64,000 nucleotides of DNA, from NCBI GenBank assembly GCA_963664305.2, contig CAXXLV010000002.1:1248001-1312000 (forward strand). Reading direction: 5' to 3'. The stretch is from an uncultured Aliarcobacter sp. (GTDB lineage Bacteria > Campylobacterota > Campylobacteria > Campylobacterales > Arcobacteraceae). Below, piece by piece: positions 4,709 to 9,948 of the stretch. A program made the position numbers and the translations under genes. Within the stretch, counting starts at the first letter, position 1; every line of letters begins with the position of its first letter. The notes beneath the pieces were generated by a model. It was given only the letters and a program-made list of their open reading frames with translations, was not told where the DNA came from and searched no databases.

Positions 4709-4726
4709 TTAATTTACTGTTAATTA
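4709..4726 (+). repeat. attL-like core TTAATTTACTGTTAATTA
   Basis: Identical to 9931-9948. Confidence 0.8.
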
Positions 4727-4939
4727 GAAAGAACTTAAAAACTTTATTTCTTTATATATTGATTATTTTTTGTGTTGAATAAGTATGTTAATTTATCAAA
4801 TTAACAAAAATTATACAAATTTAATTACTAATAACAAATTAATATTTTTTCCAATATCTAAAAAAAATTATTTTTCTAATAATTAAAATTCCATTAAAGT
4901 TATTAAGTTATAATAAAAATTATTTTTTAAAGGAATTAA

Positions 4940-5245
4940 ATGAAAAAACTTTTATTAATTAGTTTATTAACATCTCTTGCATTTTCAGAGGTTTATTATA
5001 AAAATAAAGATACAAAATATAATGATCGAGAATTAGCAGATGACCAAATCAGAATAAATGGTTATATTACAAATGTAAATAAATGGCGTGATTATACTAT
5101 CATAGAAATAAAACAAAAAGATGGAAAATATGTAAAAGCTAAAGTTGGTAATAATGATGGATTTAGTGAAAATGACATAGTTTTAGGAAGTTGTGTTAAT
5201 TACAAATACGGTCAATATGAAAGATGTTCATTATACAGAAGATAG
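4940..5245 (+). CDS. Small secreted hypothetical protein (element cargo)
   Basis: AAGGA SD; N-terminal signal peptide MKKLLLISLLTSLAFS; two Cys near the C-terminus. Confidence 0.7.
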   Translation: MKKLLLISLLTSLAFSEVYYKNKDTKYNDRELADDQIRINGYITNVNKWRDYTIIEIKQKDGKYVKAKVGNNDGFSENDIVLGSCVNYKYGQYERCSLYRR

Positions 5246-5257
5246 TTATAAAACTAT
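5220..5257 (+). repeat. Cassette direct repeat, copy 1
   Basis: AAAGATGTTCATTATACAGAAGATAGTTATAAAACTAT, near-identical to 5726-5764. Confidence 0.85.
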
Positions 5258-5288
5258 AAGTAAATATAAATTCTAAAAAGGAAGAATT

Positions 5289-5684
5289 ATGAAAATAGAT
5301 ACAGATTATCTAAAAGAAATATTAGATGTTTTTATTGAAAGTGATACTAATTACATTAAAACTGATATATACAAAACTATGATTCATGAAAATGAGGAAA
5401 AATTTTTATTTCATTGGGATCTATTATTAGATAAGTATTTAATTGTAAATACAAAAGGCGAAAAACCAAAATTAGCTACATATGCAATGAATGGTGAATG
5501 TTCAATTATTCTTGGATCAAGTGTTAGATTGCATGATAATGGGCATGAATTTTATAATATGCTAGAAGATGATACAACAATAAATAAAATCCAATCAAAT
5601 GTTAAAAATTTAAGTATGGATTTTCTTTTAGAAGCATCAAAACAGTATATAAATTATAAACTTGGAAATATTTTTAATTCATAA
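5289..5684 (+). CDS. DUF2513/YjcQ-like winged-helix protein
   Basis: Pattern MKID.DYLKEIL...FHWDLLLDKYLI...RLHDNGHEF...NKI resembles DUF2513. Confidence 0.65.
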   Translation: MKIDTDYLKEILDVFIESDTNYIKTDIYKTMIHENEEKFLFHWDLLLDKYLIVNTKGEKPKLATYAMNGECSIILGSSVRLHDNGHEFYNMLEDDTTINKIQSNVKNLSMDFLLEASKQYINYKLGNIFNS

Positions 5685-5725
5685 ATAATACAAAATAAGA
5701 AATATAAATAATACATTTATTTCTA

Positions 5726-5764
5726 AAAGATGTTCATTATTATAGAAGATAGTTATAAAACTAT
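5726..5764 (+). repeat. Cassette direct repeat, copy 2
   Basis: AAAGATGTTCATTATTATAGAAGATAGTTATAAAACTAT. Confidence 0.85.
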
Positions 5765-5767
5765 TTT

Positions 5768-6139
5768 CTATTTAAAAATCATAGTGTTATAAATTTTATT
5801 CTCTTCTTTTTGTTCTTTAATCGCTGAATATACAAAATATGTCATAAATATTGAAGCCATAATTAATGCTCCTAATACTAATAATCCTATTGCATTTTTG
5901 TGTTCAATTTTTGTATTTTTAATATCTAAAATTGGTTCGTTTGCATAAACTCTTTCATCAGTAGGAATATCTCTTTTATTATTTAGATTTAATTCTATTT
6001 TATTTTTTCTATTTGAATTAGCACTAATAAAATCTAATGCTTCTTTTCTTTTTTCTTCTTTTAATAATTGTTTTTCTGCCCTTATAACTCTTTCTTTATC
6101 ATTCCAGTAATTTTTCAACTCATCATTATCTATCTTCAT
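5768..6139 (-). CDS. Hypothetical protein with C-terminal TM helix (element cargo)
   Basis: AAGGA SD before ATG at 6139; hydrophobic AIGLLVLGALIMASIFMTYFVYS. Confidence 0.6.
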   Translation of the reverse strand: MKIDNDELKNYWNDKERVIRAEKQLLKEEKRKEALDFISANSNRKNKIELNLNNKRDIPTDERVYANEPILDIKNTKIEHKNAIGLLVLGALIMASIFMTYFVYSAIKEQKEENKIYNTMIFK

Positions 6140-6256
6140 TTTTTTCCTTAAACAAACAATAATATAGATATTCCTATTGTTATAAATAATAAAAAAAGCC
6201 AATCAATATTATCAAAACTTAATCTAAACATTTTAAGCCTTTGTTGTGGTATTAAG

Positions 6257-6290
6257 AAATTCTAACAATTAAATGACTCAGAAATGACTC
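6257..6290 (-). promoter_or_regulatory. GAGTCATTT tandem repeat (11-bp period) plus TGnTAGAAT -10
   Basis: 28/34 identical to 47804-47837. Confidence 0.5.
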
Positions 6291-6308
6291 TTTTTATAAC
6301 TTTTTTTA

Positions 6309-7328
6309 TTATTCATCTAAAAATGTAGTTTTTCTTATTGTCGTTTCTTTTTTTATATATTTAGAATATTTTTGTAAAGTTACATCTAAAGACCTATGTC
6401 CTAACATTTGACTAACCCATAATGGGTTTTCTGCATTTGAAAGCATATTACTTGCAAAGGTGTGTCTTGTTTGATATATTGAACGATAATCTAAATCTAA
6501 ATGATTTAAAATATCTTTCCAAATATTTTGTAAAGCTGAACTAGACTTAAAAGGTTTAAATTTACTATTCAAAAACACATATTCAAAAGAACCAGTAATT
6601 TTATATTGTTCTAAAAGATAACTTTCACAAATTGGCAGCATATCAATAGTTCTAACACTTGATTTAGTTTTAGGTGTATCTTCAAAACCGTTTGTAAATT
6701 GATTATCTATTTTTATGGTAAAGTTTTCAAAATCAATATTACACCATTTTAAACCAAATATTTCTCCAGTTCTTGCACCAGTATAAAAAAGAGTTGCAAT
6801 TAAATTTTTTATTAAGTCAGGAGCCGTATCAATAATTTTTTTAGCTTCATCAAAAGTAAAAGGATTCATAACATAATTTGTTTTTAGTTTTGGTTTTGTA
6901 ATTTGTAATGGAGTAAAATTGATATAACCTTTGATTATTGCTTTTTCAAATGCAAACTTCAATATAACATGACATATTCTTAAAGTAGATTTATCAGAAA
7001 AAGAATTATAAAAATCATAAATTATTGATGGAGTAATTACACTAACTACTTTATCACTAAAGAAAGGTTTTATTTGAGTATTAAATAAGTTATTATATGC
7101 ACGATAAGAATTTCTTTTTAAAGTTGATTCTTTCTCATCTAAAACCATTTGACAAAGTTCTACAACAGTAGGAACACTCTTTTTAATATTGAATTTATTA
7201 AAAAATTCTTCATCTTCATAATAAGACTTGAATTTCTTTATATTCTCTTTTGAATATTTTAATTTTGTTGTTTTTCTTATTCCATTAATTGATACATATA
7301 GAATGCCATTTCTATCGTAAAAAGTCAT
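6309..7328 (-). CDS. Tyrosine recombinase/integrase
   Basis: TGARTGE (R), PKT (K), YQTRHT, LGH and terminal Tyr; GGAGG SD before ATG at 7328. Confidence 0.92.
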   Translation of the reverse strand: MTFYDRNGILYVSINGIRKTTKLKYSKENIKKFKSYYEDEEFFNKFNIKKSVPTVVELCQMVLDEKESTLKRNSYRAYNNLFNTQIKPFFSDKVVSVITPSIIYDFYNSFSDKSTLRICHVILKFAFEKAIIKGYINFTPLQITKPKLKTNYVMNPFTFDEAKKIIDTAPDLIKNLIATLFYTGARTGEIFGLKWCNIDFENFTIKIDNQFTNGFEDTPKTKSSVRTIDMLPICESYLLEQYKITGSFEYVFLNSKFKPFKSSSALQNIWKDILNHLDLDYRSIYQTRHTFASNMLSNAENPLWVSQMLGHRSLDVTLQKYSKYIKKETTIRKTTFLDE

Positions 7329-7426
7329 TTTTCCTCCAAATTTACGCATTAAGTTCTTATCTAGTAGCAAAAGAAAACAAAAAATATTTTAAATTTGTTT
7401 GTATCCTCACGCCCTATCGGTTGTGT

Positions 7427-7498
7427 ACTCATTTTTAAAATATCGGTCTAATATCAATAACGATAAAAAAAGCTATCCGAATATTTTAAAAATCGAGT
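7427..7498. other. Long imperfect stem-loop (candidate single-strand origin or structured RNA)
   Basis: ACTCATTTTTAAAATATCGG (7427-7446) pairs with CCGAATATTTTAAAAATCGAGT (7477-7498). Confidence 0.55.
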
Positions 7499-7539
7499 CT
7501 TAATAATTAATATACATTTGTTATAAAATACTACAACTA

Positions 7540-7824
7540 TTATGAAGCTAGTTTTTTTATTGCTTCACTTATAAAAATTATTTTTATTTTTCCTTTTTCT
7601 ATCGTTTTATGATAATGAACACCTATTTTTAATCTTCCATCTTTAAACATATTATTTAATGTTGATTCAGATATATCTAGATATTCTCTAACATTTTTTC
7701 TTTTTGTCAAATCTGGAACTTTTATAAGATTACTTTCCAATAATTTTATTTTATTTTCTAAGAAAGTAATTTTTTCTAAAACTTCAGGAATTAAATCTAG
7801 ATTTTTAAAAGCTTCATAACTCAT
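7540..7824 (-). CDS. Excisionase-like HTH DNA-binding protein
   Basis: Coiled coil followed by LTKRKNVREYLDISESTLNNMFKDGRL HTH; lies directly upstream of the integrase. Confidence 0.7.
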   Translation of the reverse strand: MSYEAFKNLDLIPEVLEKITFLENKIKLLESNLIKVPDLTKRKNVREYLDISESTLNNMFKDGRLKIGVHYHKTIEKGKIKIIFISEAIKKLAS

Positions 7825-7850
7825 TTTTTATCCTTTTTATAATTAATATA

Positions 7851-8897
7851 TCAATAATCCAAAAGCCCATTTCTCAAAGAGTAGTTTTCACCTCTTTGGT
7901 ATATCAGCTCATCACCAAAAAATATTTCCATTATCTTGTTTCTATTAGTTTGTAATACAAATATAGATAATGATTTCTTTTTAACTAAAGTAGTTAATTC
8001 TTTTAAACTGAATTTTTCATGTAATAATCTATAAAGACTTAAAGGTGCTAAAGTTTTACTACAATTAAATCTAACGATTCTATGTTTACAATACCAAGCA
8101 TTTAAATATTTCTCTTTAGTTGATAAATTCTCTTTTTTAGATAAAGGTAATGTTTTATTTATATACTTCATTACATATGATGCAGCATTTTTAATATTTA
8201 TCTGTATGTCATTTGCTTTATTATCAAATAATCTTTTAAATGCGTTAACCACTCTATCTACACTTGATTTTGGGATAAATAGTAATATATGAGTATGTGG
8301 CGTTCCATTTTTATGTGGCTCATTTACTCTAAAATATATTCTTTCATCTTTAGTTAATTCTTTCAAACTTCTATCGTGTCTAAGTTTGGAAAACATTTTT
8401 GTTAAATGCTTTACTGCTTCTTTAGGTTGAATAAAATTATATTTAGAATTAGGCACTAAAATATTCATCTTTTTATCCATTTTCATTTTATGAAACTCAC
8501 TTGGAAGTGTTAAAGTCATAAATATTGGAAATAGATTTTTTTCTTTTGCTTCATTTGTTAATGTATTAATTCTGTTTTGAATTAATGCATGATATCTAGT
8601 TGGATTATGATTAGCTGATATAACTAAATCTTTTAAAGGAATTTGAGTTCCTGAAATTTTGTCATAGAGGTAATTATATTTTAAAAAAGAATTTTGTCTT
8701 TTTAACTTTTCTAAAACTTCTTTATAATCATTTTGACTTAAGCCATAAATTTTAGTTTTATTGCTTATGTCCACAACTTTTTTATAAATAGTCAAGGAAG
8801 ATAAAGAAGAAAAACTTTGTTCGCACGGCTCACAAATTATTTTCTTCTTATCTTCAATCATTACGCTATTGTTAATAATTTCTTTTGTATAATGCAT
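7851..8897 (-). CDS. HUH rolling-circle replication endonuclease (P2 gpA-like, two Tyr)
   Basis: Motif 1 FMTLTLP, motif 2 EPHKNGTPHTHILL, motif 3 YVMKY. Confidence 0.88.
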   Translation of the reverse strand: MHYTKEIINNSVMIEDKKKIICEPCEQSFSSLSSLTIYKKVVDISNKTKIYGLSQNDYKEVLEKLKRQNSFLKYNYLYDKISGTQIPLKDLVISANHNPTRYHALIQNRINTLTNEAKEKNLFPIFMTLTLPSEFHKMKMDKKMNILVPNSKYNFIQPKEAVKHLTKMFSKLRHDRSLKELTKDERIYFRVNEPHKNGTPHTHILLFIPKSSVDRVVNAFKRLFDNKANDIQINIKNAASYVMKYINKTLPLSKKENLSTKEKYLNAWYCKHRIVRFNCSKTLAPLSLYRLLHEKFSLKELTTLVKKKSLSIFVLQTNRNKIMEIFFGDELIYQRGENYSLRNGLLDY

Positions 8898-8973
8898 TTA
8901 TATATCCTTATCCGAGGTTATTTAGTTCAAAGGAAGAAAAACCGCCAAGTATTCTTTCCTTTGGACAACTTAA

Positions 8974-9240
8974 TTAAACTGCTGTAAATGAAATTGAAGA
9001 CTTAGAATAAAGTTTGCAATTTATTTCCATATCTTTACCAATATTAGATTGATATTTTTGTACCTCTTTTTCATCAATAGTTATATCAACTAATTCTTTT
9101 TTAGAAGTACCATTATTTAGTTTTTGATTTGCAAGTAATTGAACTGCAAATTTTTTACTCGTACTTTCTCCTGTTTCTTTATTTATATAGACTGGCTTTT
9201 CGTAACAATCTATTATTTTGCCTTGTATTGTTATGTTCAT
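8974..9240 (-). CDS. Putative ssDNA-binding protein (small beta-rich OB-like fold)
   Basis: 88 aa, beta-strand pattern, NKETGE hairpin; next to Rep as in inoviruses and RCR elements (inference). Confidence 0.55.
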   Translation of the reverse strand: MNITIQGKIIDCYEKPVYINKETGESTSKKFAVQLLANQKLNNGTSKKELVDITIDEKEVQKYQSNIGKDMEINCKLYSKSSISFTAV

Positions 9241-9698
9241 TTTTCTTCCTTATTTCTATTTTTTTTAAATTCAAATTCTTTATTTGTAATAGGTGAAACT
9301 ATGAATGATTCTTCTGATAATCCAAATTCAACTGATAATCTTTCATTTTCAACAACATATTTGTCATATTCTTCAACAGTCCGAAAATCTGTTCTACTAC
9401 AACCTGAAACAAAAATGCTTGGTGCAATTAAAGATATAATATCTGGCAAATATCTGATTTCTTCTTCTCCAAATTCATTATTAACTTTTACCCCATAGCC
9501 TTCACCAACAACAACTAACTCTTTTTGTAATTGAACTAAAGAGTTATCAATCATTTCTCTAATTAATGTAGAAACAGTTATTCCATAATGTTCAGCAAGA
9601 ATTTCAAGAACATCAACTTTTCCTTTTGGCATACGAAGATTTATCTTTTTTTCTTCACCTCTGCTATCTAATTTATTTAACTTTTTGTCTAAAGACAT
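9237..9698 (-). CDS. Ribbon-helix-helix (CopG-like) repressor with C-terminal extension
   Basis: KKINLRMPKGKVDVLEILAEHYGITVSTLIREMI RHH pattern; AAGGAG SD before ATG at 9698. Confidence 0.75.
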   Translation of the reverse strand: MSLDKKLNKLDSRGEEKKINLRMPKGKVDVLEILAEHYGITVSTLIREMIDNSLVQLQKELVVVGEGYGVKVNNEFGEEEIRYLPDIISLIAPSIFVSGCSRTDFRTVEEYDKYVVENERLSVEFGLSEESFIVSPITNKEFEFKKNRNKEEK

Positions 9699-9727
9699 AT
9701 TTACTCCTTTTTGCAAATTATTTGTAT

Positions 9728-9760
9728 TACAATTGTATCACCAAAATTTACAATTGTCAA
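9728..9760 (-). promoter_or_regulatory. Sigma70 promoter of replication operon with two overlapping TACAATTGT operators
   Basis: Minus strand TTGACA-N17-TACAAT with TGn extension; TACAATTGT at 9728 and 9749. Confidence 0.75.
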
Positions 9761-9930
9761 TAATTTTATTAATGAATAAATATTTTTGAAATAAATAAGT
9801 GTGCTTGATTTGTGTATTTTTTTAAATATAAAATAAATATATTTTCAAATTAAAATATATTCTAGAATTCAAAAGTTACATATTTATGATGATTTGATAT
9901 ATATTTGATTTATAAATAAAATATGTAATA

Positions 9931-9948
9931 TTAATTTACTGTTAATTA
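9931..9948 (+). repeat. attR-like core TTAATTTACTGTTAATTA
   Basis: Identical to 4709-4726; abuts the glpD stop codon. Confidence 0.8.

Follow-up and report, generated by a model that had tools for sequence, protein, structure and literature searches.

A 5.2-kb self-integrating rolling-circle element of an uncultured Aliarcobacter belongs to a distinct family in Campylobacterota and has predicted antisense copy control

In a 64,000-nt stretch of DNA from an uncultured Aliarcobacter sp. (contig CAXXLV010000002.1, positions 1,248,001 to 1,312,000; hereafter the window) we analysed a 5.2-kb element at window positions 4709 to 9948 which, judged from its sequence, is a member of a distinct and widespread family in Arcobacter- and Sulfurimonas-like bacteria. 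The element is inserted site-specifically, has intact genes for a tyrosine integrase (Int), an excisionase-like protein (Xis), a rolling-circle initiator (Rep), a single-stranded-DNA-binding-like protein (SSB) and a ribbon-helix-helix (RHH) protein, and has no virion or conjugation genes, and its family carries often defensive cargo. On balance, we favour the view that it is a mobile element which likely excises, is predicted to replicate as a copy-controlled rolling-circle plasmid and likely spreads by facultative hitchhiking, for which ssDNA (single-stranded DNA) inside filamentous-phage particles is the most probable form. An original prediction for this DNA had proposed a self-integrating rolling-circle element with its own Int and Xis and without virion or transfer genes; this is supported, and a whole family of such elements was found.

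The unit of about 5.2 kb is bounded, as originally proposed, by an exact 18-bp direct repeat (4709-4726 and 9931-9948, spacing 5,222 bp, no strand assigned), and the 2.78-Mb genome contains only these two copies when 1 mismatch is tolerated on both strands. With a pair of short inverted arms flanking 7 bp in the centre, the presumptive overlap, the repeat reads as the form of a tyrosine-recombinase core, and the right attachment (att) copy lies immediately 3’ of the glpD stop codon. The empty site was predicted to join glpD to the promoter of a receptor gene through one 18-mer. Of 40 relatives searched with glpD, 11 possess an orthologue, and in nine of these the alignment runs without a break over this junction, with a single core; of the other two, one is split across contigs and one is not alignable over the junction. 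Relative G019, 92% identical over 3.1 kb, retains one exact 18-mer at the empty site, while the core differs at 1-3 positions, mainly in the centre, in the other empty-site relatives. A 3.6-kb sister element in genome G002 (Rep 83% identical) has a different integrase and occupies the same core upstream of a TonB-dependent receptor gene. Since glpD is not adjacent there, the integration target is the upstream region of the receptor gene. The GC content of the element is 22.7%, compared to 26.9% for the genome.

All core genes are co-oriented on the minus strand in the order RHH-like, ssb, rep, xis-like, int, and are accompanied by three cargo open reading frames (ORFs). This inventory confirms the earlier gene identities, whereas the start positions of the RHH, int and third cargo genes had to be moved according to ribosome-binding sites. 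The assignments of Rep and Int are firm. Rep (7851-8897, 348 aa) is an HUH rolling-circle initiator of the P2 gpA family with two tyrosines in its catalytic motif; it matches Pfam Phage_GPA (E 8.5e-24), is 79-82% identical to named Aliarcobacter butzleri homologues, and its motifs TLTLP (128), HTH (201) and Y241 plus Y245 are invariant across 20 homologues. Int (6309-7328, 339 aa, likely start at 7328 from the ribosome-binding site) matches Phage_integrase (E 3e-19) and retains R186, K220, YQTR (285-288), H311 and Y321. It is 64% identical to the integrase of an inovirus prophage residing in the same genome, and its nearest neighbours in the integrase tree are two inovirus integrases.

The Xis and RHH assignments are based on weak profile matches together with gene position. 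The excisionase-like helix-turn-helix protein (7540-7824, 94 aa) is about 75% identical to Xis of the co-resident inovirus and matches HTH_17 and PHROG excisionases, every match being weak. The candidate CopG-like RHH repressor (9237-9698, 153 aa, likely start at 9698 from the ribosome-binding site) shows weak matches to Pfam CopG/RHH_3 (E 0.01-0.05) and an 87% hhalign match to a family that itself matches RHH_1. For the 88-aa SSB-like protein (8974-9240), an oligonucleotide-binding (OB) fold is supported by a confident structure prediction (pLDDT 86.5 from 62 sequences), by SSBs in the top Foldseek rows (E ~0.02; VIA Z <=7.0) and by a neighbour in the Atlas, scored 0.91, that belongs to the Putative_G5P family. 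No inovirus gene-V protein was among the fold-search matches listed, and the protein is homologous to one inovirus SSB family (83% in hhalign).

Rep homologues were detected in 52 of 184 genomes of the host family and in 73 of 301 genomes of the host order. Three architectures can be distinguished among the loci fetched: inovirus prophages, which carry Zot and secretin; Rep-SSB-FtsK islands; and minimal elements consisting of RHH, SSB, Rep, Xis/AlpA and Int. The minimal-element Reps form one clade with SH-aLRT support of 100 (20 of 68 rows in a first tree, 8 of 25 in a second). Both are quick trees (67 and 25 rows), the first built without the duplicates L110 and L118 and the second without 43 rows including the long-branch L109. 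The minimal clade is sister to an inovirus clade (support 95-97) and is present in 12/184 host-family genomes, two with a broken rep, and in 9/301 host-order genomes; its named records include Sulfurimonas, Sulfurovum and Helicobacter. None of 99 deduplicated family loci contains virion genes. Because many of these loci are short, the stronger count comes from the 34 long ones, in which purpose-built profiles label an integrase in 34, SSB in 32, RHH in 27 and FtsK in 1. For approximately 30 members, direct repeats mark the boundaries and give sizes of 3.4-9.1 kb; they sit mostly at tRNA or tmRNA ends, and the targets of the family also include intergenic sites. In several of the members, 3.4-3.8 kb long, there is little besides the core genes. 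Among the family cargo, 20 of 59 proteins scanned (out of 76 listed) match PADLOC models at E <=1e-8, and the defence types comprise type II restriction-modification, retron-type reverse transcriptases, Avs5, AbiGi, AbiU and PD-T4-2.

Several loci found on the way depart from this plan. In a minimal-clade element at a tmRNA (L140:6325-7638), an FtsK-like gene that adjoins ssb replaces the repressor gene, and the cargo includes AIPR. One member (L112) lies on a 4.8-kb contig of a metagenome-assembled genome labelled Labilibaculum (Bacteroidota) and is probably mis-binned. Four Rep-Xis-Int units with Reps of inovirus clades (L061, L067, L074, L081) have no virion genes nearby, some being located beside very large ORFs or insertion sequences, and are probably truncated prophages. 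A third architecture built on the same Rep family is represented in the genome under study by a 7.8-kb island at tRNA-Arg (L076:4799-12629, G000:C1) encoding a gpA-type Rep, an SSB-like protein, an FtsK-like ATPase and a TIR-domain protein. Moreover, the SSB profile matches 44 of 401 genomes, and among the fetched loci L254-L271 (e.g. L255:6712-8055 and L268:6802-7950) 13 of 18 share a gene order of an unassigned ~300-390 aa gene, SSB, an unassigned ~360-455 aa gene, then Xis and/or Int. One product of the ~360-455 aa genes has a weak Rep_trans match (E 2e-4) and is 44% identical to another, so that this set likely represents a sister family with a swapped, Rep_trans-like initiator on the ssb-rep-xis-int chassis.

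The predicted double-strand origin is a 22-base motif on the minus strand at 8775-8796; the codons aligning with the start of inovirus Reps follow ~50 bases downstream of it. With up to 2 mismatches allowed, 16 of 20 clade members and 19 of 33 inoviruses contain it and none of 7 FtsK islands does; for metagenome loci (the best 80 of 122 hits) the count is 79 of 80. The motif lies within rep in the element but is non-coding and upstream of rep in inoviruses, and is therefore a DNA signal. We read it as a nick site because of its likeness to the corresponding sites of phiX174 and pC194.

A second signal on the minus strand, at 7398-7507 in the xis-int spacer, comprises a long hairpin (7427-7498) and a covarying mini-hairpin (7413-7420). 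The spacer hairpin folds, as RNA, at z -3.7 and is 75% identical to the spacer of the co-resident inovirus. In 184 genomes BLAST detected the full hairpin only in this element and two inoviruses, plus one 33-base partial match, and a profile search added a third inovirus. All 26 pattern matches of the hairpin’s 3’ motif are on the rep strand. With a weight matrix of the mini-hairpin, 38 of 105 family loci are hit on the strand of rep and 0 on the opposite strand, compared to 6/58 and 2/58, respectively, in inoviruses and 0/7 in FtsK islands. The motif occurs at several different positions among loci, with its variable pair Watson-Crick in 32 of 32 sites, and resembles the stable GCGNNAGC mini-hairpins of phage G4 origins. 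From these features the signal best fits a single-strand origin, a packaging signal being less likely. An earlier idea of the 110-bp hairpin as a family-wide packaging signal was dropped, since no other member has the complete hairpin and what is widespread is its 3’ motif alone.

Copy control would be exerted at two levels. The minus-strand operon promoter (9729-9760; 11/12 consensus with an extended -10) is covered by two 8-bp palindromes 21 bp apart, a candidate operator. On the plus strand, a predicted -10 box (8888-8893) overlapping rep codons 2-4 would drive a counter-transcribed RNA of ~75 nt (8900-8975), whose target hairpin (8928-8963) exposes a UUGGCG loop (8943-8948) on the mRNA strand. 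This RNA would mask the rep ribosome-binding site and terminate in a hairpin. The loop hexamer or its reverse complement was found in 41 of 79 ssb-rep spacers, compared to 7% in random windows. Rep codons 2-4 encode the opposite-strand -10 box in 48 of 73 assigned starts, where residue 2 can be N, D, H or Y; elsewhere in these genes, 69% of the codons of this residue class end in T. Across 33 aligned leaders the positions of the -10 box do not vary, while all four letters occur at the first position of codon 2. The predicted antisense RNA folds at z -3.25 (0/200 shuffles). For the mRNA strand, this copy taken by itself gives an unremarkable fold (z -0.24). The stem in the ssb-rep spacer is 88% paired with double changes in 7 of 10 pairs, exceeding all 500 shuffles and all slid controls, but its structure was drawn by eye from the same alignment and sequence kinship inflates the covariation counts, which weighs against this part of our reading. 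Rfam yielded 0 matches for the predicted RNA at E up to 5. One inovirus carries the same hairpin in antisense orientation directly after its coat gene, which fits a terminator role. Comparing L051, L052, L143 and L231 with L144, L147 and this element, one finds near-identical leader stems capped by either UUGGCG or its reverse complement, so that sense and antisense loops appear to have been swapped by small inversions.

The combination of an RHH repressor, a palindrome-covered promoter and an antisense leader is predicted to follow the copG-repB/RNAII logic of the pMV158 family, in which, according to PMC4485353, an RHH repressor and rep form one operon with a counter-transcript across the rep leader. 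pMV158 differs in being a free plasmid whose RNA pair is without a U-turn loop; this element differs in having ssb between repressor and rep, another Rep family and the ability to integrate. The loop hexamer is shared with the Inc RNA of the I-complex, UUGGCG being the loop of ColIb-P9 going by a paper title cited in PMC10724649. The predicted antisense control, the putative origin motifs and the co-resident inovirus had escaped the original prediction.

From these features a course of events can be proposed. Very likely, Int and Xis release a 5,222-bp circle. Rep would then nick at 8775-8796, SSB would coat the displaced strand and host enzymes would prime the second strand at the 7398-7507 hairpin, a step that we regard as likely. 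The RHH protein probably represses the operon promoter while the ~75-nt antisense RNA masks the rep ribosome-binding site through a UUGGCG kissing loop, in the manner of pMV158 CopG/RNAII. For the vehicle we only tentatively propose the virion of an inovirus when one infects the cell, conjugative mobilisation, transformation and transduction accounting for the remainder. Whether the family amounts to an undescribed, widespread class of integrase-encoding filamentous-phage hitchhikers of Campylobacterota, with an antisense-tamed two-tyrosine Rep, swapping integrases and single-strand signals, and shuttling anti-phage systems in inovirus particles, is rather doubtful.

Mobility is suggested by genome comparisons. 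In the complete genome G224, each of two tRNA-Leu genes holds a copy, and over 3.87 kb the pair is 99.5% identical. Wastewater run X3, which is independent, has four element contigs with a mean identity of 97.7% compared to 94.0% for three flank contigs, possibly from more than one organism; one contig bridges the left junction and one spans the xis-int hairpin, with little coverage of the cargo. The element is intact and probably mobile. Of the self-excising episome originally proposed, the site-specific insertion and the intact Int and Xis genes stand, but the circle was seen neither in source nor in metagenome contigs.

A number of observations weigh against the favoured reading. Joints of the attP or attB type were absent from Logan contigs of X1, X2 (the probable source sample), X22 and X3, and in source-run contigs the element is as deep as its flanks, with single contigs crossing each junction. 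However, missing joints do not show absence because contigs drop rare forms. Terminal repeats were present in 0 of 80 metagenome element contigs (best 80 of 122) compared to 6 of 25 inovirus contigs. PLSDB contains no close relative among 72,556 plasmids. None of the other family members examined has the full hairpin shared with inoviruses. The trees do not reject monophyly of the inoviruses (approximately unbiased test, p-AU 0.129), so that either direction of descent is conceivable. The helper evidence in the following paragraph points the same way.

An inovirus prophage with Zot and secretin (L075:2632-12033; G000:C2 ~1,566,600-1,576,000) resides in the same genome; it is not at a tRNA and is bounded by its own 18-bp repeat, with a core form similar to that of the element. 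Besides the hairpin, int (73%) and xis (83%) are similar at the DNA level, while the Reps are only 34% identical, and a T run in the prophage xis contains either a frameshift or an assembly error. In the tree, family integrases intermix with those of inoviruses, requiring at least 9 changes. Altogether, these similarities demonstrate, at the level of sequence, shared ancestry and module exchange with inoviruses. The helper-dependent satellite of the original prediction is unproven, as inoviruses show no significant enrichment among the hosts. An inovirus is present in just 5 of 20 of them and 15 lack a Zot match, including G224 with its two recent copies, and thus the transfer vehicle is unproven, as is dependence on an inovirus helper. 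Zot occurs in 4 of 12 host-family carriers and 25 of 172 others (p 0.10; 0.38 omitting this genome), and in 2 of 9 host-order carriers and 40 of 292 others (p 0.36). Even at a loose E of 0.001, Zot was not detected in 10 retested hosts, two of them complete.

These counts bear most directly on an obligate, RS1-like inovirus satellite, which would need a resident filamentous prophage, use the hairpin for packaging and perhaps lend its Xis to a helper with a frameshifted xis. The modules and core form shared with the co-resident prophage, the confinement of the full hairpin to three inoviruses including this one, and the phage-like two-tyrosine Rep and SSB would suit such a lifestyle. We nevertheless consider it unlikely, given the hosts without Zot and a plasmid-type copy control that suggests independent maintenance. 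The mini-hairpin is also commoner in the family than in inoviruses and occurs beside an unrelated Rep-like gene (L268), a distribution that suits an origin read by the host.

The lack of significant co-occurrence would agree with an integrative plasmid that is purely selfish and, needing no specific helper, spreads through natural transformation or because rolling-circle concatemers undergo generalised transduction. A ComEC-family gene in this genome and the 3.4-3.8 kb members holding little past the core point in the same direction. This explanation, which we likewise rate as improbable, leaves the conserved SSB and the repeated exchange of modules with inoviruses unaccounted for; classical small rolling-circle replication (RCR) plasmids are not known to carry an SSB.

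Rep might alternatively act as relaxase and the origin as origin of transfer (oriT) of a non-canonical integrative mobilisable element (IME) borrowing a coupling ATPase and pore from another element. Two papers describe 35 streptococcal IMEs with an RCR-type initiator and no coupling protein (PMC5704250) and the mobilisation of plasmids by RCR Reps via ICEBs1 (PMC5714925), and an FtsK-like gene adjoins ssb in one member (L140), this genome also harbouring the separate Rep-SSB-FtsK island. We hold this to be a slim possibility, since FtsK is found in just 1 of 34 long loci, a VirB4-family match is absent from this genome (one Pfam model), and the known cases depend on Firmicutes TcpA-type helpers. 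Finally, a recently decayed inovirus prophage minus its morphogenesis block, suggested by a gene order equal to that of inoviruses without the block between ssb and rep and by Int and Xis closest to inoviral ones, is largely refuted and very improbable: the Rep clade is old, spans several Campylobacterota families and is never accompanied by virion genes, a repressor type, an N-terminal extension of rep and a leader hairpin are peculiar to the element, and every core gene is intact, with a Rep far from that of the co-resident prophage. Kinship with filamentous phages granted, the clade together with its cargo and control region speaks for a family of stable elements.

The remaining features of the element concern its cargo and integrase sites. 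The first cargo ORF (4940-5245, plus strand, 101 aa) encodes a predicted protein with a signal-peptide-like N-terminus; homologues in two inovirus prophages are 29-30% identical (E 5e-12 and 8e-10), and the ESM Atlas yields no usable family. The second (5289-5684, plus strand, 131 aa; phrog_585, DUF2513-like below cut-off) lies between 39-bp direct repeats (5220-5257, 5726-5764) that copy the 3’ end of the 101-aa gene, an arrangement like that of a cassette gained via short-homology recombination. The third (5768-6139, minus strand, ~123 aa, likely start at 6139) has a C-terminal hydrophobic helix and no family match. A PADLOC search of the element’s own cargo gave zero matches. Downstream of int, a tandem 9-bp direct repeat (6271-6290, no strand assigned) provides candidate arm-type integrase sites, unusually distant from the left core; similar pairs exist in two inoviruses. 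A 48-bp match to this region at G000:C2:1743820-1743866, between two host genes and with no integrase homologue nearby, is possibly the scar of a lost element.

The movement of small islands without transfer genes is an open question, for which this family makes a compact study object: coordinates can be given for replication and copy control as well as for candidate single-strand signals, a plausible helper is present in the same genome, and restriction-modification, retron, Avs and Abi genes appear to be carried through Campylobacterota. None of the collections searched (phage, plasmid and IMG/VR) contains the family. PLSDB and INPHARED gave only P2-like and Vibrio small-phage Reps (24-29% identity among the matches listed); IMG/VR gave no match with a single Rep query and, with a Rep alignment, 25 matches of at most 37% identity, all inoviruses and no family member. 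No description of the family was found in a literature search that left subscription journals and bioRxiv supplements largely outside, nor in the accessible text of PMC12595487, PMC13230959, PMC13669383, PMC6813254 and 10.64898/2026.01.13.699239.

By gene content, the element fails membership in inoviruses, Xer-exploiting integrative mobile elements (IMEXs) and the phage-inducible chromosomal islands (PICIs). With the zot inoviruses of Campylobacterota it shares the gpA-type Rep, origin motif, SSB, rep-xis-int order, tRNA targets and exchanged integrases, and an inovirus-type RCR initiator, SSB and predicted double-strand origin are all present. It differs in having no coat, pIII, Zot/pI or secretin gene, an RHH gene co-oriented with rep, an antisense leader and an origin inside rep; neither a pI/Zot ATPase gene nor small membrane coat genes were found between the att sites. 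RS1/TLC-type elements integrate at dif through host XerCD, the IMEX trait, which is absent here as the element has its own integrase. RS1, TLC and pDolos are, like the element, small RCR replicons without virion genes that could in principle be packaged by filamentous phage. The originally noted resemblance to RS1/TLC holds as an analogy, but the initiator families differ, that of CTX type being Rep_trans (PF02486) and that of TLC Ff-type according to PMC4863604 and PMC12715192, and the nearest kin are integrase-bearing zot prophages such as CON_phi2/3 of Campylobacter (PMC5025632). Table 2 of the same paper lists CON_phi1 of Campylobacter concisus 13826, with att copies 5,222 bp apart, in tandem with 9.4-9.6-kb zot units at tRNA-Ser, an array resembling RS1-CTX arrays; CON_phi1 may be an earlier sighting of such an element. 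pDolos, a plasmid and the precedent for inovirus hitchhiking, appears in its preprint without mention of an integrase (10.1101/2023.11.28.569023); for our element, packaging is hypothesised.

Streptococcal IMEs (PMC5704250; see also PMC5357655) share Int, Xis, an RCR initiator, variable cargo, tRNA-end targets and the lack of a transfer apparatus, but their initiators are Rep_trans, Rep_2, PHA00330 or Viral-Rep and not Phage_GPA, their hosts are Firmicutes and TcpA helpers are proposed. The IME trait of an integrase with att-bounded insertion is present in the element, and its Rep matches neither the Pfam models among these four initiator families nor any NCBIfam model. [quoted passage not shown] They use primase-type replication and tailed helpers, and no primase, terminase or capsid-control gene was found in the element. 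New in this analysis are the prediction of antisense-RNA and repressor copy control at the rep start, the predicted nick-site-like motif shared with inoviruses and a strand-specific hairpin that is likely a single-strand origin. By analogy, the element would work like streptococcal IMEs with RCR initiators and inovirus hitchhikers such as pDolos, and is thus best described as a variant of known integrative rolling-circle hitchhikers.

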